DNA of 11,980 nt from a virus (lineage: Duplodnaviria; Heunggongvirae; Uroviricota; Caudoviricetes). Below, in pieces: positions 2,460-10,823 of this stretch; the stretch's first letter is position 1, and every line of letters starts with the position of its first letter. Both the position numbers and the translations under genes were made by a program. The stretch spans positions 1-11,980 of the IMG/VR virus record IMGVR_UViG_2537562191_000041, one strand, 5' to 3'. The notes under the pieces were generated by a model. That model did not search any database, was not told the DNA's origin, and saw only the letters and a program-made list of their open reading frames with translations.

Positions 2460-3346
2460 TGCCACTGCTGGATAAGCTGCGTGAGCAGTACGGGGTCGGA
2501 CCGGTATGCAGCGAACTGCATATTGCCCCGTCAACGTATTACCATTGTCAGCAACAGCGACATCATCCGGATAAACGCAGTGCCCGTGCGCAGCACGACG
2601 ACTGGCTGAAGAGAGAGATACAGCGCGTATACGATGAAAATCATCAGGTGTACGGTGTGCGTAAAGTCTGGCGTCAGTTGTTACGGGAAGGAATCAGGGT
2701 GGCCAGATGTACAGTGGCACGTCTCATGGCGGTTATGGGACTTGCCGGTGTTCTCCGGGGTAAAAAGGTCCGTACGACCATCAGCCGGAAAGCCGTTGCC
2801 GCAGGCGACCGCGTAAACCGTCAGTTCGTGGCAGAACGACCTGACCAGCTGTGGGTGGCTGATTTTACTTACGTCAGCACATGGCAGGGCTTCGTCTATG
2901 TGGCGTTTATCATTGATGTGTTTGCCGGATACATCGTGGGGTGGCGGGTCTCATCGTCTATGGAAACGACATTCGTGCTGGATGCGCTGGAGCAGGCGTT
3001 GTGGGCCCGTCGTCCGTCTGGCACCATCCATCACAGCGATAAAGGCTCTCAGTATGTGTCACTGGCCTATACGGAGCGACTAAAAGAAGCCGGATTACTG
3101 GCATCAACAGGGAGTACAGGCGACTCGTATGACAACGCGATGGCTGAGAGCATCAATGGTCTTTACAAAGCGGAGGTAATACACCGTAAGAGCTGGAAAA
3201 ACCGTGCAGAAGTGGAACTGGCCACACTAACGTGGGTGGACTGGTATAACAATCGACGATTGCTGGGAAGGCTGGGCCATACTCCTCCGGCAGAAGCAGA
3301 AAAAGCTTATTATGCTTCCATCGGAAACGATGATCTGGCAGCCTGA
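2456..3346 (+). CDS. IS3-family transposase OrfB (DDE catalytic domain); probably expressed as an OrfAB fusion by -1 frameshift
   Basis: 296-aa ORF in the -1 frame relative to orfA, overlapping at AAAAAATGA; contains the HSDKGSQY and [15 protein letters not shown] motifs typical of the IS3 DDE transposase. Confidence 0.85.
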
Positions 3347-3361
3347 GTTCACAGATAAAAC

Positions 3362-3388
3362 ACTCTCCAGGAAACCCGGGGCGGTTCA
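3362..3388 (+). repeat. IS right terminal inverted repeat (IRR)
   Basis: Reverse complement TGAACCGCCCCGGGTTTCCTGGAGAGT pairs with IRL. Confidence 0.7.
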
Positions 3389-3391
3389 AAC
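3389..3391 (+). repeat. right copy of 3-bp target-site duplication (AAC)
   Basis: Identical to 2076-2078, immediately after the terminal CA of the IS. Confidence 0.6.
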
Positions 3392-3433
3392 CTTCTCTGC
3401 GCATTGTTTACAACTGGGCGGAATAATCCCTAT
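3392..3433 (+). other. displaced original 3' end of the IS-interrupted gene 1622-2107 (would encode ...VK-PSLRIVYNWAE-stop)
   Basis: Deleting the IS plus one AAC copy restores the same frame, which continues to TAA at about 3431-3433; a CCCGCC/GGCGGG stem-loop follows at about 3436-3452. Confidence 0.5.
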
Positions 3434-3480
3434 CCCGCCCTTGTGGCGGGAACATCCTTGTTATTGAGTTGTAGGCAACA

Positions 3481-4032
3481 ATGACACCAATTGAATTATT
3501 AGAAAGCGTTAAAGAGCGATTTAATCCGCTGCTTGTGCGTGAAGAAGAAACGTTGAAAGCATTCCTGATCAAAGCTCTGACCACGTATCAGGACAGGGCA
3601 GGGGTAGTGAAAACGTTAAAACTTGAAAAAGCTGGTGGTACTGCAATCCCGTTGCCAGAAGATTATCTCTCTCTGGTTCAGGTTACCGACAACAACGGCT
3701 TGTTGGTCTATTCGGATGAATTATCCGGATTTATTGAATTAGAACTAACAGGTTCAGAACGCTGGCCTTTTCGAATGCTGTATCTGGTTAATCTACGCGA
3801 CAGAAAGCTGGATGAATGGCAAGTGCCTCCTGCAATCATTGGAATGCTGGAGGAATATCTGGAGGCGCTTATCAATGTAAGAAATGTCGCCCGGCAGCGT
3901 AGAGCGTCCATCGACGGGAAATTTGACTACTCCGATCTGCCCGATGAAGCCACGCTATATGCCCGCGTGCAGGAGATTGAGGAAAAAATGTCCTCAAACC
4001 GGGCCATTATTCCGGGGGCTACCATTTTTTAA
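3481..4032 (+). CDS. hypothetical protein (183 aa)
   Basis: ATG ORF with a weak AGG Shine-Dalgarno; no recognisable motif; transcribed in the same direction as neighbouring structural-type genes. Confidence 0.55.
   Translation: MTPIELLESVKERFNPLLVREEETLKAFLIKALTTYQDRAGVVKTLKLEKAGGTAIPLPEDYLSLVQVTDNNGLLVYSDELSGFIELELTGSERWPFRMLYLVNLRDRKLDEWQVPPAIIGMLEEYLEALINVRNVARQRRASIDGKFDYSDLPDEATLYARVQEIEEKMSSNRAIIPGATIF
3630..3637 (+). other. Chi site (5'-GCTGGTGG-3')
   Basis: Exact octamer read on the + strand. Confidence 0.6.
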
Positions 4033-4047
4033 CGCTGGAGGCGCAGA

Positions 4048-4755
4048 GTGAGTATTTTCAGCAGCGTTGGTAGAACGTTGACCACCGCATTGTCATTTAA
4101 CACGAAATCATTCACCAGCAACCTCATTAGCGACATTCTTGATAAAGCCATATCAGGCGGCGGGGTAAGCGGGAATTACAGTAGCGATATTGCCTACGGG
4201 AAAAATATTGTTGCTGCCGCTATGCGTATCCGTTACGCCCAGGGGTGGCAGTGGACCGTTGAAGTGGATGGCCTGAACGGCTTCGATATGTTCGTGAAGG
4301 ATATCACCTACAGCAGTGGAAACATTGAGACAGAAAGCAAGGTGATCGGCAGCGTAGAATTCAGCAAGCCAACCTATGTTAGCGCCGGACCGGTCACTAT
4401 GACCGTGAGGGATACCGAAGATGGCAAGATCATGGACTGGTTCAAAGAGCGTCGTTCTCGTGTAACAAATCCTGATGGAACAATAAACCTTCCTCCTGAA
4501 TATCTGATGAAAATCCGTGTCTACCGGGTAACTCAGGACGGCGGAAAAGAACTGGAAGAAGAAATGCGCGTATTTCCTACGCAACTTGGGGAAATCACAC
4601 GCTCACGTGATCAGGTGTCAGAGTTCTTGTCATACCCAATCACTTTCCAGAAATACACATCCGCAGGCTCAGGTGTTTCTGCTTTGGTCAACGGTGCCGC
4701 GGGCATGGCTACAAGTGCGTTAAAGGGGGCTATCAGTGGAGTGATCAAATTCTGA
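4048..4755 (+). CDS. hypothetical protein (235 aa), beta-rich with Gly/Ala-rich C-terminus; GTG start
   Basis: GTG at 4048 preceded by GGAGG (4037-4041) at 6-nt spacing; ORF ends 12 bp before the first incA-like iteron. Confidence 0.6.
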   Translation: MSIFSSVGRTLTTALSFNTKSFTSNLISDILDKAISGGGVSGNYSSDIAYGKNIVAAAMRIRYAQGWQWTVEVDGLNGFDMFVKDITYSSGNIETESKVIGSVEFSKPTYVSAGPVTMTVRDTEDGKIMDWFKERRSRVTNPDGTINLPPEYLMKIRVYRVTQDGGKELEEEMRVFPTQLGEITRSRDQVSEFLSYPITFQKYTSAGSGVSALVNGAAGMATSALKGAISGVIKF

Positions 4756-4767
4756 AATGCTTTAATT

Positions 4768-4989
4768 ATGTGTGCTGTAGGGAAAGGTTTACGTTAAATG
4801 TGTGCTGCCGGGAAACCCCATTGCTCAAGATGTGTTGTAGAGGGAATGGTAATGGCAACATGTGTGCTGGAGGGGAATTTCGCATGTAAAGAGCGTCATT
4901 TATCCCGCCAGCACACATCTGAACTAAGCAATCCTCTGAAATTCCCTCCACCACACATCCAGACATGAAACTATCCCTTCAGCACACAT
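4768..4989. repeat. incA-like iteron array downstream of repA: seven copies of the ATGTGTGCTGnnGGGAA-type repeat, four in one orientation and three inverted
   Basis: Iteron cores read at 4768, 4798, 4830, 4860 (ATGTGTGCTG orientation, ~30-bp phasing; the third is degenerate) and at 4909, 4949, 4980 (CAGCACACAT orientation); the last abuts the repA stop. Confidence 0.8.
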
Positions 4990-5850
4990 TTAATCTGTTG
5001 GTTTAAGTTTCGGATTCCGAGAGTGAACGATAATGAAGTTTTCACGACCTTGCTTTTCAATGGTGCAATCGAGATAACCTATTGTTTTTAACTGTTCTAT
5101 AGCTTTTTTTATCGTTCTGTTTTGCTCACTTACCGATGACATCAAGGCTAATCTTTCACGTATTCTGGCAAATGAAATAGGTATTGGACGTGCCGGGAGG
5201 CTTTCTATAAAGGTATATATGGCCTGGGCTGCTTCTTTTTTAGGTAAAGCGCGAAGTGCGTGTTGCTGTAGAAGCACCCGATAGTCTAGCTGGAAGATTT
5301 CCCATAACTTGGAATCAGCCTCCAGTTCAACGACATCTGTTTCAAAGCCAAAATATCCCGTTTTAAGCAGGCCAGTATTGTAGCTTCCACGAGCACTTTT
5401 CCCTCTTTTGAATGAGATGCCTTTGTTGCGTAACCGACCTAAAGAATCGTGGATCGTGTTTCTTAATTTCCCATCAAGTCGCTTAGATGGAAATCCGCAC
5501 GCCTTTGCAAATTCTTGAAAAGAAAGGCGAATTGTATTCGATGATAAGCCATACTTGCTAAATGAGTAGATTACCCCAATCCAGACTTTGAAATCAGTAT
5601 CCATGTCCAAGCGAGGGCCAGTGATCTTGATGTTGTCGTAGCCTTCTGCTTGAGCTATTTCCAGTTTGGAAAAAACAGATGATGCATCTATCTCGTTGTT
5701 TTCACCCTGTTTTTTAGTTGGTTTAGGGACGAAAACACCAAGCCGCATAAGTGCGACAGGTTGAACAGTATTGTTCGAATTAACTGTTAATTCTTTAGCC
5801 TTGCTTTCAATGTCAGCATAAAGAATATCAGAGATAAATGACTTATCCAT
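4990..5850 (-). CDS. repA: iteron-binding replication initiator RepA, P1 / RepFIB family
   Basis: 286-aa ORF (from ATG at 5850; the ORF track starts one codon earlier at TTG 5853) flanked on both sides by repeats matching the P1-type 19-bp iteron; the N-terminus MDKSFISDILYADIESKAKE resembles my memory of P1 RepA. Confidence 0.9.
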   Translation of the reverse strand: MDKSFISDILYADIESKAKELTVNSNNTVQPVALMRLGVFVPKPTKKQGENNEIDASSVFSKLEIAQAEGYDNIKITGPRLDMDTDFKVWIGVIYSFSKYGLSSNTIRLSFQEFAKACGFPSKRLDGKLRNTIHDSLGRLRNKGISFKRGKSARGSYNTGLLKTGYFGFETDVVELEADSKLWEIFQLDYRVLLQQHALRALPKKEAAQAIYTFIESLPARPIPISFARIRERLALMSSVSEQNRTIKKAIEQLKTIGYLDCTIEKQGRENFIIVHSRNPKLKPTD

Positions 5851-5908
5851 CAATAAGTTACCGTCATGTTGTGAATAAAGTTTACGACAGTGGATATCCG
5901 GCTTTTTT

Positions 5909-6011
5909 TCCCGTCAGCACACATCCTACATCCCGTCAGCACACATGTAAAACCCTCCAGCACACATATTTTTCCCGTCAGCACACATCATTTTCCCTCC
6001 AGCACACATCT
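5909..6011. repeat. incC-like iteron array upstream of repA: five direct iterons at 21-22-bp phasing, probably containing the autoregulated repA promoter
   Basis: CAGCACACAT cores start at 5915, 5937, 5958, 5979 and 6000, all in the same orientation as repA transcription. Confidence 0.85.
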
Positions 6012-6055
6012 GAATAGTGGTTAAAGCCTTATGTGGCGCGGCCTGAAGAGCTACG

Positions 6056-6118
6056 GGATCTATTTGGTACTATATGGATCTAATCAGGATCTATATATTG
6101 GATCTATCCTGTGGATAA
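6056..6118. promoter_or_regulatory. oriR-like replication origin core: four GGATCTA heptamers (each with a Dam GATC site) and a consensus DnaA box
   Basis: GATC at 6057, 6077, 6088 and 6101 inside the repeated heptamer GGATCTA; TGTGGATAA at 6110-6118 is the reverse complement of TTATCCACA; an A-rich tract follows. Confidence 0.75.
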
Positions 6119-6204
6119 AAAAGAAGAATTACAAAGCTCCACCCAATTTCACACACTACCTATCCTCCAACGAATAAACAGACATCTGCTTATCGGAGGA
6201 ATAC

Positions 6205-7026
6205 TTGAACATTCCAAAATTCCCATTGCCTTCCCGTCCTGAGACAGAAATTCAGTTCCACGCCCCTACCGTGAAGGATGCGCTGAAATATTCTGACCTG
6301 AACCCGGCAGAAGATGAGGCAACTACTACAGAGTACCTTAACTCTATGCAGGATGGTGAAATTAACGACAGTGCTTACTGGACAGTCCAGGATCGCAGAA
6401 CTGCCCTTTGGTGGATATTTGTTAATTCGCGCCCCGATGCAGTAATGACTTACTCCTATGAGTGCAGTCACTGCGGTAATACGCATCACGCCGATATAAA
6501 CCTGAGCGATCTGGCTCAAACAGTAGAGATACTCACTGTACCGCCTTACGTAAAAACCAACGTACCGGTAAACGGTGTACCAACTGACTGGATACTTAAA
6601 CCATTAACCGGGAAAGGCGCGGAACTCCTTGAACGTATGCGTGCGTCACTTCCTGATATGAAAAGCCCTGAATACAGTGCAGGCGTGGCCCGTATGCGCA
6701 TTGCAGAACTCGCTTTATGCACGGCACTGGACGACGATCCGGAAGACTTCACTCAAGCAGCTAACCGACGCTTCGACATCATTGAAAGCATGGCGCTTGA
6801 AACCGAGTTTACACCGCTTGTGGCTCGCATACAGCTTATGCAAAAAGACCTACGCCACGGCCTGAAAATGTCTATTGAGAGAGGCACAAGCCGACTGATC
6901 CTGCCTCCGCAACATTGCAAAAACGCTAAGGAGGGTGCAGATGTGACAACCACACTGTACGTCCCCTTTCTCAATAGAGAGTTTATCCCATCAATTAGAT
7001 CTGAATGGATGGCTAACCATTATTAA
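6205..7026 (+). CDS. hypothetical protein (273 aa) immediately upstream of the tape-measure-like gene; possibly a tail assembly or accessory protein; TTG start
   Basis: TTG at 6205 preceded by GGAGG (6194-6198) at 6-nt spacing; the first in-frame ATG is about 47 codons downstream; contains a CSHC pair. Confidence 0.55.
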   Translation: MNIPKFPLPSRPETEIQFHAPTVKDALKYSDLNPAEDEATTTEYLNSMQDGEINDSAYWTVQDRRTALWWIFVNSRPDAVMTYSYECSHCGNTHHADINLSDLAQTVEILTVPPYVKTNVPVNGVPTDWILKPLTGKGAELLERMRASLPDMKSPEYSAGVARMRIAELALCTALDDDPEDFTQAANRRFDIIESMALETEFTPLVARIQLMQKDLRHGLKMSIERGTSRLILPPQHCKNAKEGADVTTTLYVPFLNREFIPSIRSEWMANHY

Positions 7027-7172
7027 CAACCTGACTCTATATGGATATCAGCCCGTTAGCGACGTTGAACAATTACCGCAATGGCGAGCACTCCATATGT
7101 CAAAAGCCCTAGAAGAAAAATACAAAGCTCAAGCCGGGAAACGTTGATCGCGCTGGTAAAAGAGAGGTTATT

Positions 7173-10100
7173 TTGAAAGAGAATAAAGACCGTATCGCAA
7201 TAATTGACGCTATTCAGGAAGCGAGCACAAACGAACTTAAAGCTCTTGCTGAGGTAAAAGACGCCATTCTTTCTGGGGCAAGCACCATAACTCAACAGGA
7301 CGAAAGGCAAGGCAGAGTTAGCAACAGACTATCACGCAGGCGTAAAGAGTACGAGCAAAGTACATCTGATAGCGTTAGAGATGTCCAAACTAACCCATAT
7401 AAAAAACGTCTCACTGCTAAAAAGGAAAGGGCACCGATAAACCAAACCGTGGACCGCGCTATCGTTGCAACGAACACACCAGAAAGTGTTCGCTCCGTGC
7501 AATCACGTCAGACCATCCGAAAATCGGACGGTTTTATACCGGTAGCTGCTAATTCAGCCCCTCTTGAACCACAATCCCCCCAAAGTCTAAAAGGCCCGCT
7601 GCGGGATAGTAATGGACGTTTTGTATCCCAGAAAAGCAATGAGGATGTAGCCAGAAAAAAAGAAATGCAGAACGCACGTAAAGCCGACGCAAAATTACAA
7701 GCTGGCTTTCTCAGAAAGCTAGGTTCCATTATGGGGGTAGATGGCAATCAGTCTTCCAGTGAAGAGTCTTTAACAAATGCAGCTGGTGTCGGTGCTGGTG
7801 GGCCGTTATGGATGGCGGCTCGTGGCATGTACGACATAACTAAAGAGATCACAGGTAAAGCAGAATCTCTTAAAGAATGGGTAGAAAAGGGGAAAAAAGA
7901 AACATCAACCTCGAAAGCGATATCACCAGTAATTACTTATCCGGCGGCGGTGAATTCTCAAAAAGCAACATCTGCAAAAGCGTTCAATAACGCTGTTGAG
8001 ACAAAATCCGCACAAGCAGTAGAAGAGCAAACCAAAATCCTTCAGACCAATGACAACAAAATAATTGATGGTCTGGAAAATGTTTCTGACGAGATAGTTA
8101 AGCTTCGGAAATCAGTGTCTTCTGGAAATAAGTTCGGCTTAAGTGATCTCTGGAAAAATCGAGCAAGCAGAAGAAATAAAATCAATATTGGTGATCGGGC
8201 GGGAAAAAATAAACGGAACACATCGAAAAGGAAAGGCCACAATCTTGGGAAAAAAGCACTCTCCGTTGGCGAAAAAGTTGCTGCCGGTAGCGCTGCAGCT
8301 GGCACTGGTGTCGGAACAGCCAAAGCAGTTAAAAATAAGATCAGCAAACCCAAAGATGTAAGCACTATCAGCGATACATCAAAGGGGATTGCAAAGGAAA
8401 CAAAAAATACTGCTAAGGCCGTGAAGTCAGCTGGTGTTGTGGCTGAAGATACTACCATTAAAACCGGCGAAGCCATTGCAAAGAAAAAAACTGAATCTGT
8501 AGCCCTCAAAAGTGCTGCAAAAATAGGTGTTAAATCAGCAGCATCCACAGCGGCAAGAGCGGTCCCTATCATCGGTTCGCTGGCAATGGCTGGATATGAC
8601 GCCATAGATGGTTACACAGATATAGAGGCGCAAAAGGCAGCCTTTGGTTTAAGTGACGATGATGCTGTATCCGAACAGCAAAAAACGGCTTACGCAACAG
8701 CTAATGTGCTCGATATGGGGGGCTTGGTGTCGGGCGCAACAAACTTGATAGGGAAAGGAATTTCTGCGCTAGGATTTGAAAGAGCTGGTGAAAAACTTCA
8801 GAATTTTGATACCGGAGATATTGCTCGTGGTGTTAACGGTGCAGTAGATATCACCAAATCTGTTTTTGGTAGCCTTAAGGATACATTTTTATCCACTGAC
8901 GAAAACACGAAACAAGTAAAAAAAGCGGTTGAGGATGGCACCAAGAAGACCGTCGATGCGATTCATTCTTTAGGTGAGCAGCTACAAGGCGGGCGTGATG
9001 GTGAAGATGGTGTTGGTGAGCACGGGTATACTTCCCCGGCTGAATTTAATGCCCCTGCCAGCAACACCATTGCAGCGGATCTGAATATTGGTGGCAGCAA
9101 CGCTAAAAACCGCAATTACCGGAATAATAACCTCGGCAACCTTGTTTTCGCTAATCAGGAAGGGGCTGCGCTGGAAGCACCAAATGCAAAAGGTGAACAA
9201 CGTTTTGCGCGATTTAACACGCCTGAAGAAGGGATCAGGGCGCTGGCAAACCAGGTGTCAAGCTATTACAACGGCACCAGCGCCGCTGCTGGGTATCAGA
9301 AGCTACAGACGGTATCCAGTATTATTTCCAAATGGGCACCCCCAAAGGAGAACAATACTAATCAATATATTGATAACGTCAGCAAATATCTTGGCGTCTC
9401 GCCTAATGAAAAAATAGACGTCAGCAACCCAGAAGTTATGACGCAATTAGTTCGTGCAATAGCGACGAAAGAAGGTGGAAACCCGGCGGTTAACAATGAG
9501 TTCATAAAGAATGCTCTTGGGGCATTTAACACAAACACTGGTCGATGGGAGGGACAATTCTCTGACGAAACATTGGCGCGGATTAATAAAATTCAGAAAG
9601 AAAATGGTGGTCAGCTAATTGCCCGCGATTCGCAATATAGTGTTGGTCGCAAGGTAAAATATGCTAATGGAAAATCTCCAGCTCAACCAGTTTTGAATGC
9701 CGTTCCGACAGCAACACAACAGCCAATTGAGGTTGCACAACATGCCCAGGCAGTCAAAAAGCCACAAAAAACAGGCAATCAATCGCAACCGATTAATCCA
9801 GAGAATGTTGATGTTAATACTGGCTCGCCATCAAGTCTGCTTGAGAGATTAATCGCTATAAATGACAGCGGGGTAGGTAATTTATTTGGAGGTGCGGCTA
9901 CCAGCATTGCTGGTACAAGCCTTGGCCTGATTAAGGATTTTGCGTCGGCGACTTCGTTTGGTTCTATATCTTCGCTTTCCGAAAAAGCGAAAGGAATGGA
10001 TCAGGCTCTTACTGAAAAGATATCCAGCTTAACCGGTAAATCTTTTGGATTTCAAAAAGCAAGCCAGGTAACTGATATAAGAGACGCTTTACAAAAAAGA

Positions 10101-10823
10101 CCAAAAGCTGAACGCGATATGCCTTCAGTGGATCTTCTTTCCGGTGTTTCTTCGGCAAGTGAGAGTGAAAAAATCTCTGTAAACTCAAGGGGGATTCCAG
10201 TTTATGACAATGGATACAAGGTAATTGATGGTGAAGATAAGGGGGTGCTTGGCTCTTTGTTTGACTCGTCATTAACAGGTCTGAAACGTATTAGCTCTGC
10301 TGTGTTACCTGCAATTGGCGATAACGTTTCACGACTTATTGGTGGGGTAGATGGCACTGGCATTGTTAATGATTTGGTTTATCAGGCTACTGGGCAGAAC
10401 TCAACAATTGCGAGGGCTATTAGCCCGCTTACCAGGAGCGCCGGTAGTTGGCTGAATAATGGTATTCAACAAACCGCAGATAGCATTAGAGGTATATCAA
10501 ACGAAGCCAATAATGCCATATTTGGCTCTGCGTCAGCCGTGCAAGAACCTTTTCTTGCTATGCCACCACAGCTTCCTACTGTAACAGATCTCGCACGAAG
10601 CGGAATAAGACAACCATTAACTACTGACACTATAAATAACGATCCTGCTATGTTGAAGGCGCTGGATAACATCTGCTCTATCCTGAACGACCTTCTGAAT
10701 GTGAACAAGAACAATACAAAAGGCGATCCGGATAAGGTTGTCAAAACATCGCAGCCGCAACCGCGACCACGTGCTAGCACAACTATTAATGACCCGTCGC
10801 TGGATGCTCTGCTTGAGGATTAA
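7173..10823 (+). CDS. large virion protein (1216 aa), tape-measure / Sit-like injection protein with a globular domain embedded in its C-terminal half
   Basis: TTG at 7173 is the only start codon after the in-frame TAG at 7110-7112 and has AAGAGAGG at 6-nt spacing; long A/G/K/S-rich helical-type sequence with hydrophobic Gly-rich stretches; followed directly by baseplate-type genes. Confidence 0.75.
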   Translation: MKENKDRIAIIDAIQEASTNELKALAEVKDAILSGASTITQQDERQGRVSNRLSRRRKEYEQSTSDSVRDVQTNPYKKRLTAKKERAPINQTVDRAIVATNTPESVRSVQSRQTIRKSDGFIPVAANSAPLEPQSPQSLKGPLRDSNGRFVSQKSNEDVARKKEMQNARKADAKLQAGFLRKLGSIMGVDGNQSSSEESLTNAAGVGAGGPLWMAARGMYDITKEITGKAESLKEWVEKGKKETSTSKAISPVITYPAAVNSQKATSAKAFNNAVETKSAQAVEEQTKILQTNDNKIIDGLENVSDEIVKLRKSVSSGNKFGLSDLWKNRASRRNKINIGDRAGKNKRNTSKRKGHNLGKKALSVGEKVAAGSAAAGTGVGTAKAVKNKISKPKDVSTISDTSKGIAKETKNTAKAVKSAGVVAEDTTIKTGEAIAKKKTESVALKSAAKIGVKSAASTAARAVPIIGSLAMAGYDAIDGYTDIEAQKAAFGLSDDDAVSEQQKTAYATANVLDMGGLVSGATNLIGKGISALGFERAGEKLQNFDTGDIARGVNGAVDITKSVFGSLKDTFLSTDENTKQVKKAVEDGTKKTVDAIHSLGEQLQGGRDGEDGVGEHGYTSPAEFNAPASNTIAADLNIGGSNAKNRNYRNNNLGNLVFANQEGAALEAPNAKGEQRFARFNTPEEGIRALANQVSSYYNGTSAAAGYQKLQTVSSIISKWAPPKENNTNQYIDNVSKYLGVSPNEKIDVSNPEVMTQLVRAIATKEGGNPAVNNEFIKNALGAFNTNTGRWEGQFSDETLARINKIQKENGGQLIARDSQYSVGRKVKYANGKSPAQPVLNAVPTATQQPIEVAQHAQAVKKPQKTGNQSQPINPENVDVNTGSPSSLLERLIAINDSGVGNLFGGAATSIAGTSLGLIKDFASATSFGSISSLSEKAKGMDQALTEKISSLTGKSFGFQKASQVTDIRDALQKRPKAERDMPSVDLLSGVSSASESEKISVNSRGIPVYDNGYKVIDGEDKGVLGSLFDSSLTGLKRISSAVLPAIGDNVSRLIGGVDGTGIVNDLVYQATGQNSTIARAISPLTRSAGSWLNNGIQQTADSIRGISNEANNAIFGSASAVQEPFLAMPPQLPTVTDLARSGIRQPLTTDTINNDPAMLKALDNICSILNDLLNVNKNNTKGDPDKVVKTSQPQPRPRASTTINDPSLDALLED
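7794..7801 (+). other. Chi site (5'-GCTGGTGG-3')
   Basis: Exact octamer read on the + strand. Confidence 0.6.

Follow-up and report, generated by a model that had tools for sequence, protein, structure and literature searches.

The best described relatives of the replicon analyzed here are those of phages P1 and P7 (IncY), in which a DnaA box is followed by five heptamers, a GC-rich spacer, five iterons containing the repA promoter, repA itself and inverted incA iterons. The mechanism of such origins is already textbook material. An array of DnaA boxes is located at each end of the P1 origin (PMC4980987), DnaA opens this origin with the assistance of RepA (PMC5043065), and origin methylation is essential for the replication of both P1 and the RepFIB-type ColV-K30 (PMC2865523). 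Elements of the D6 group carry their replicon at a different location, between the genes tub and pmgB and on the opposite strand, and recent surveys use D6's own repB to type D6, and IncY or p0111 to type P1. A more remote likeness is to E. coli oriC, where DnaA opens AT-rich repeats (13-mers) that begin with GATC and SeqA binds them in their hemimethylated state; the P1 core is said to have been linked with these 13-mers. The oriC region, in contrast, has no plasmid initiator or iterons, its repeats are 13-mers rather than heptamers, and it contains several DnaA boxes of graded affinity.

The sequence under study is a stretch of 11,980 bp (hereafter the window) from the IMG/VR virus record IMGVR_UViG_2537562191_000041. 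Over the replicon region it shares 99.4-99.9% identity with E. coli plasmids of 93-97 kb in PLSDB, such as pE2863-2, and the flanks of this region match phage D6 in nucleotide comparison. The genes are arranged in the order sheath, pmgC, tub (4048-4755), replicon, pmgB (6205-7026), sit (7173-10823) and pmgA, and the source element is a D6-like (P1-related) phage-plasmid of E. coli. The replicon forms a cassette (4756-6148), including seven incA-like iterons, that lies between the tail genes tub and pmgB. A search of 5,426 complete E. coli genomes identified the cassette at an identity of at least 99.4% in seven of them, always on a 93-97 kb plasmid, and no chromosomal copy was found among these genomes; a copy is also present on a Salmonella plasmid in PLSDB. 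No plasmid replicon other than the cassette is annotated on the seven E. coli plasmids, and the full annotation of pE2863-2, which PLSDB types with a single replicon, names no replication genes beyond the initiator of the cassette and the lytic repL. Typing with MOB-suite assigns the plasmid to rep_cluster_2221 and not to IncY, although its iteron cores are nearly identical to those of P1. The literature searched contained no account of a P1-type replicon in D6-like elements.

The initial annotation, made from the sequence alone, had proposed that positions 6040-6125 form an origin core of the P1 oriR type. Comparison with described replicons upholds this proposal and extends it well beyond the core, since positions 4974-6118 of the window are collinear with the repA-oriR region of P1 and P7 at ~71% nucleotide identity; the same stretch is 73.6% identical to the Cronobacter phage JK004 in a sensitive blastn comparison. 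The GenBank records of P1 and P7 label the aligned stretch with repA, incC iterons 10-14, PrepA, five Dam sites, a DnaA site and oriR. Judged by every structural criterion that can be applied to the sequence, with the exception of the tandem box pair, 6040-6125 belongs to the P1 oriR family, and we regard its identity as an origin as settled by this DNA-level homology to an annotated origin. The features of the replicon and its surroundings are collected in Table 1.

Table 1. Features of the P1-type replicon and the adjoining pmgB region; coordinates refer to the 11,980-bp window.
Feature	Coordinates	Strand	Description
incA-like copy-control array	4767..4990		Seven RepA iterons; starts 11 bp past the tub stop codon
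repA, iteron-binding replication initiator	4990..5850	-	286 aa from the ATG at 5850
repA-proximal DnaA box TTATTCACA	5870..5878	-	Plus strand TGTGAATAA; fits the TTATNCACA consensus
Weaker DnaA-box candidate ATATCCACT	5889-5897		Listed beside the minus-strand box at 5870..5878
incC, five direct 19-bp RepA iterons	5907..6010	+	Iteron starts at 5907, 5929, 5950, 5971 and 5992
GC-rich spacer GTGGCGCGGCCTG	6033..6045		85% GC; identical in P1 and P7
Heptamer array, presumed unwinding element	6056..6106	+	Five 7-bp repeats, four Dam sites, 31% GC
Perfect DnaA box TTATCCACA	6110..6118	-	Reads TGTGGATAA on the plus strand; 3 bp past the last heptamer
A-rich junction filler	6119..6148		Matches neither P1 nor D6; right end of the cassette
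Late-promoter-like motif for pmgB-sit	6149..6166	+	-22-type box TCACACACT, 3 bp (ACC), -10 TATCCT
pmgB homologue	6205..7026	+	Starts with TTG; ribosome-binding site GGAGG; first gene past the origin, followed by sit (7173-10823)

The arrangement departs from that of P1 and P7 in several respects. P1 and P7 have two DnaA boxes at the heptamer end, where the window has one. P1 possesses five GATC sites, the additional one lying outside the heptamers, and the window four, and the nine incA iterons annotated in two orientations in P1 and P7 contrast with seven in the window. The P1-type parAB-parS locus, adjacent to the replicon in P1, has no counterpart next to the window replicon. Given the seven incA iterons and the missing P1-type parAB, copy number and stability may behave differently from those of P1. 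In P1, moreover, parA and upfA flank the replicon, and tub directly adjoins pmgB in an operon driven by LPsit, whereas in the window the replicon separates tub from pmgB. A single consensus-grade box at the unwinding end, a shortened incA, the absence of P1 par and a site in the tail cluster beside a late promoter are the traits particular to the window.

The product of repA is 84% identical to P1 RepA over 283 aa and matches the phrog_775 (E = 1e-132) and Pfam Rep3_N (E = 5e-6) profiles; RefSeq labels it as a RepB family plasmid replication initiator, and none of the NCBIfam models matches either RepA or PmgB. The spacing of the incC iterons (22/21/21/21) is identical to that of P1 iterons 10-14. 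On the minus strand, incC harbors a putative repA promoter, with a -35 element (TTTACA, 5951-5946) and a -10 element (TAGGAT, 5928-5923) separated by 17 bp, which was the only sigma-70-like site detected in a consensus scan of 4700-6300 and which falls where PrepA is annotated in P1. The incA-like array comprises iterons in minus orientation at 4767-4785, 4797-4815, about 4830-4846 (degenerate) and 4859-4877, and iterons in plus orientation at 4901-4919, 4941-4959 and 4972-4990. Allowing up to two mismatches, the iteron core CCAGCACACAT was identified 14 times in the window versus 3.3 expected, and 11 of these 14 instances lie within 4768-4989 and 5914-6009. Two open reading frames (5838-6017 on the plus strand and 4766-4966 on the minus strand) lie wholly over the iteron arrays, yield no Pfam match and were regarded as spurious; PLSDB records show 'hypothetical protein' features beneath the replicon match. 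A scan for terminator-like sites after tub returned none, and late transcripts from tub might for this reason read through the replicon antisense to repA.

The initial annotation had based its proposal on four GGATCTA heptamers and on four GATC sites within about 50 bp, each inside one of these heptamers. Both observations hold, with heptamers at 6056-6062, 6076-6082, 6087-6093 and 6100-6106 and with GATC sites at 6057, 6077, 6088 and 6101 that span 48 bp, to which a fifth, degenerate heptamer lacking GATC (GGTACTA, 6066-6072), overlooked in that first reading, has to be added. Over the whole window, GGATCTA is found five times versus 1.02 expected, the fifth copy being located at 1119. GATC itself shows no window-wide enrichment (41 found, 41.5 expected), and a cluster of four sites this tight arises in ~1.5% of random placements of 41 sites. 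With a chance probability of that size (P ~0.015), the cluster taken alone can be called suggestive and nothing further, and chance was rejected as its cause on the grounds of homology, not of this value. These heptamers line up with the Dam sites marked in the oriR of P1 and P7 in GenBank. Their phasing is 10/10/11/13 in both the window and JK004, as compared with 10/11/10/13 in P1. In order, the heptamers read GGATCTA, GGTACTA, GGATCTA, GGATCTA and GGATCTA in the window and GGATCTA, GGATCTA, GGATCTG, GGACCTG and GGATCTA in P1, the degenerate repeat being the second in the former and the fourth in the latter. JK004 and contigs L035 and L025 share the heptamer pattern of the window (GGATCTR, GGWAMTA, RGATCTA, GGATCTW, GGATCTA) as well as its GATC spacing of 20/11/13 bp, which is close to whole helical turns. 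Such spacing is said to suit cooperative SeqA binding.

Parts of this core are preserved in replicons that otherwise have little in common with the one studied here. The GATC-bearing heptamers are kept in phase in every relative examined, including IncFIB(K), SSU5-like, Pantoea and Leclercia origins, and the GC spacer is conserved in distant IncFIB-type and SSU5-type origins. Replicons of the RepFIB/IncFIB(K) and SSU5 types share with the window the GC spacer, GGATCTN repeats placed 10-14 bp apart (with four to six GATC sites) and, 3 bp past the last repeat, a single DnaA box or a pair, but their iterons and Rep proteins are unrelated to those of the window or very distant from them; one K. 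pneumoniae IncFIB origin likewise has a single box, TGTGGAAAA. The core module, in which the GC spacer is combined with phased GGATCTN repeats and either one or two boxes, was matched by 958 PLSDB plasmids and is common to replicons with unrelated iterons and Rep proteins (IncFIB(K), SSU5-like, Pantoea and Leclercia; L061-L065 and L017).

Taken literally, the assertion that the region contains only one perfect DnaA box is correct, but it misses the box at 5870-5878, which belongs to the consensus class. A search for the TTATNCACA consensus returned two matches in the entire window, 5870-5878 and 6110-6118, both on the minus strand and flanking the iteron and heptamer arrays on either side; because of this second box at the repA-proximal end, the origin as a whole is not a one-box origin. 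The other candidate that had been noted, near 5889, was recovered at 5889-5897 as AGTGGATAT, with two mismatches as originally described. The heptamer end carries one box, versus a tandem in P1, and the repA end carries one consensus-class and one weak box. In the alignment, the 6110-6118 box is homologous to the inner box of the P1 tandem pair, and it coincides with the annotated DnaA site of P1 and P7, while the 5870-5878 box aligns with the P1 TGTGGATAG box located between the start of repA and the iterons. A possible IHF site close to these repA-proximal boxes (CATCAATAAGTTA at 5848-5860, one mismatch to WATCAANNNNTTR) is given no weight, since such sites occur at chance frequency (14 found versus 14.4 expected).

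At the heptamer end, P1, P7 and JK004 present the tandem pair AGTGGATAA followed by TGTGGATAA. The window keeps only the inner position of this pair, where it has the perfect consensus TGTGGATAA and P1 has TTATCCACT; the outer box of P1 is missing from the window, the alignable resemblance to P1 stopping at 6118. P1, JK004 and L025 likewise have a box 3 bp past the last heptamer, as do most of the distant relatives compared, and the Pantoea and Leclercia origins show a degenerate sequence at that position. Unlike the window, JK004 and L035 retain both tandem boxes together with a P1-like upfA side. The single-box arrangement recurs beside pmgB in contig L021, whose cassette is 96% identical to that of the window, and in L025 (~73% identical), where heptamers, spacer and a single box (AGTGGATAA) precede pmgB and where the alignment with the window is unbroken from repA through the origin into pmgB. 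Since it is common to the window and to an element that is only ~73% identical, the single box at the unwinding end is a stable natural state and not recent damage. In P1, a single DnaA box reportedly suffices.

Immediately beyond the cassette lies pmgB, the product of which shares 98.5% amino-acid identity with D6 orf41 and 39.8% with P1 PmgB and matches phrog_1854 (E = 1e-134). A sub-threshold Pfam match of PmgB to T4_baseplate (PF12322; E = 4.6e-5, 23.7 bits versus a cut-off of 24.5) was also observed, which hints that the protein is a baseplate or tail component rather than the head morphogenesis protein of its PHROG label. The initial annotation had suggested that the origin and the tail-operon promoter may share DNA. 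The two are indeed adjacent, with a late-promoter-like motif 30 bp past the box, but the motif overlaps neither the box nor the heptamers. Homology to P1 ends at 6118, and homology to D6 begins at 6149, exactly at the 5' edge of this motif. The sequence TCACANNCTNNNTANNNT has a single match in the window, at this very motif, versus 0.01 expected. The late motif of the D6 group, defined as AAATCACAnnCT, 3 bp and TAnnnT, was derived by inspecting the upstream regions of D6 late genes. In D6 (L066/L067) it is present in 10 copies versus ~0.6 expected, every one of them just upstream of a late gene (darB, the peptidoglycan hydrolase gene, prt, ddrB, lydA, R, pmgB, 23, gene 7 and mat), and a looser version yielded 11 matches in pE2863-2 versus 1.6 expected, nine of which are at corresponding sites. 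The instance upstream of pmgB is conserved in D6, L021 and L025; the motif is unannotated in the D6 record. It differs from the LPsit-type late-promoter motif of P1 (AAATGACTA, 4 bp, TAGAAT), which is absent from both the window and D6, and the consensus scan of 4700-6300 detected no plus-strand sigma-70 promoter before pmgB. It is very probable that pmgB-sit has a late promoter of its own, as predicted from this motif, and that promoter presumably depends on an Lpa homologue. The A-rich stretch at 6117-6136 is located where an UP element would sit; as it is not conserved in D6, little weight is placed on this possibility.

The slot between tub and pmgB was surveyed in IMG/VR contigs carrying the conserved start of pmgB. 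Two cassette types were found within flanks that are 92-100% identical, the D6 Rep_3 replicon in 13 contigs and the P1-type replicon in L021 and L045. The D6 replicon (orf42, Pfam Rep_3) occupies the same slot in the same orientation, in a backbone that is otherwise 95-99% identical, and its general layout of iterons, an AT-rich stretch and a DnaA-like box is similar. Its iterons, however, differ from those of the window, it lacks a GGATCTA array, and its Rep protein shows no significant BLASTP match to the RepA of the window. A D6-type Rep_3 replicon was considered for the window and rejected, there being no orf42 homologue with TTGAGGGCAAATCTTACACC-type iterons here. Apart from the pmgB promoter region and an iteron relic of 25 bp, the D6 and window cassettes have no DNA in common. 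On the left, the cassette boundary falls inside the iteron nearest the tub stop codon, and at this position D6 retains relic fragments of P1-type iterons, ATGTGTGCTGGAGGG and TTTCCCGTCAGCAC (L006 6960-6925, corresponding to D6 46960-46925). The presence of relic iterons at the left edge of an unrelated Rep_3 cassette suggests that the D6 slot once held a P1-type replicon.

A more complete version of the module is found in the more distant D6-like element L025 (IMGVR_UViG_3300009011_000012), where the interval between tub and pmgB (3333-8883) encodes ParB and a ParA with an HTH_54 domain and contains incA, repA and oriR; this incA has at least nine iterons, and the element shows ~70-73% nucleotide identity. 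L025 resembles the window in its single box and in the junction between origin and pmgB, but it keeps P1-type parA and parB between tub and incA. The simplest series suggested by these comparisons leads from the full module (L025), through the loss of par and two iterons (the window), to replacement (D6). A bolder interpretation would make the slot a site of replicon exchange within the late operon at which origin and late transcription can be coupled, with the P1 type as the ancestral occupant and the single consensus-grade box as a long-lived adaptation. We regard this interpretation as speculative and rather unlikely. Were it true, late transcripts entering from tub would run through the origin, antisense to repA, and switch off replication in the plasmid mode during lytic growth; another possibility is that the late promoter of pmgB could be modulated by DnaA or SeqA bound 30-110 bp upstream of it.

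We consider it highly probable that 6040-6125 is the core of a P1-type, RepA/iteron-controlled replicon (4756-6148) by means of which a D6-like phage-plasmid is maintained as a plasmid prophage of low copy number. The exclusively plasmid carriage of the cassette, combined with the fact that its initiator is the only one besides the lytic repL, makes it very likely that the cassette works as the prophage maintenance origin. By analogy with P1 oriR, RepA monomers would bind the five incC iterons and thereby also repress the embedded repA promoter, and host DnaA would bind the 6110-6118 box and probably the 5870-5878 box too. DnaA and RepA would then open the AT-rich five-heptamer array, where DnaB would be loaded. 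Initiation would require full methylation of the four GATC sites, and after passage of the fork SeqA would bind the hemimethylated sites and keep the origin silent for a while. Copy number would be limited by the seven incA-like iterons, through titration of RepA and through pairing with the origin. Each of these biochemical steps is carried over from P1 oriR by homology, the features observed directly being the homology itself, the collinearity, the conservation of the elements and the plasmid carriage. Dam dependence and SeqA sequestration, both put forward in the initial annotation, are thus well-founded inferences for this origin.

The main alternative concerns this last point. The cassette could be a working origin in which the heptamers serve only as unwinding element and single-strand contact for DnaA and in which, unlike in P1, replication depends on neither Dam nor SeqA. 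The window does have one GATC fewer than P1, the heptamer devoid of GATC varies among relatives (the second here, the fourth in P1), and the reason for the methylation requirement of P1 has been described as unclear (PMC2865523). The retention of four phased GATC sites across lineages that are 70-96% identical is difficult to reconcile with such indifference to methylation, as are the persistence of GATC heptamers even beside unrelated iterons and the need for methylation in both P1 and the RepFIB-type ColV-K30 (PMC2865523), and we judge a Dam-independent origin to be improbable. It is less probable still that the GATC cluster and the box are no origin at all and chiefly regulate transcription of pmgB-sit or repA, as a promoter region under Dam and DnaA control. 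The late-promoter-like motif is only 30 bp from the box, and the A-rich stretch 6117-6136 might be placed as an UP element, both of which such a role would accommodate; the heptamer-box module, however, accompanies iterons and rep genes in hundreds of plasmids with no pmgB nearby, the D6 late-promoter motif has no heptamer array upstream, and there is no plus-strand sigma-70-like promoter in 4700-6300.

An inactive relic, carried by a plasmid that replicates from some other origin, is a reading to which we attach next to no credence. D6 demonstrates that relic P1-type iterons can persist in the slot, and relative to L025 the window has lost the par genes and two incA iterons, but its repA is intact and encodes a protein 84% identical to P1 RepA, all origin elements are conserved, and no other plasmid-type initiator is annotated on pE2863-2.

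On the preferred reading, that of an active P1-type replicon, the cassette provides the probable maintenance origin of a subgroup of D6-like phage-plasmids present in STEC, other E. coli and Salmonella, a subgroup that typing by the D6 repB or by the P1 IncY/p0111 rep genes may miss or misassign. It also offers a natural example of an origin of the P1 type, by homology, with one DnaA box beside the unwinding element, an arrangement that fits a mutational result reportedly obtained for P1. The understanding of how such origins work is unchanged by this finding; what emerges is that these phages carry their maintenance module as an exchangeable cassette with sharp ends, one inside an iteron and the other at the edge of a late promoter. 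Outside the window, pE2863-2 (NZ_AP018804.1) encodes its own 762-aa Dam-family adenine methyltransferase (38228-40516), the counterpart of P1 Dmt, as well as ParM-type partition genes (44056-45012), which are relevant to an origin without P1 par genes for which GATC methylation would be required.
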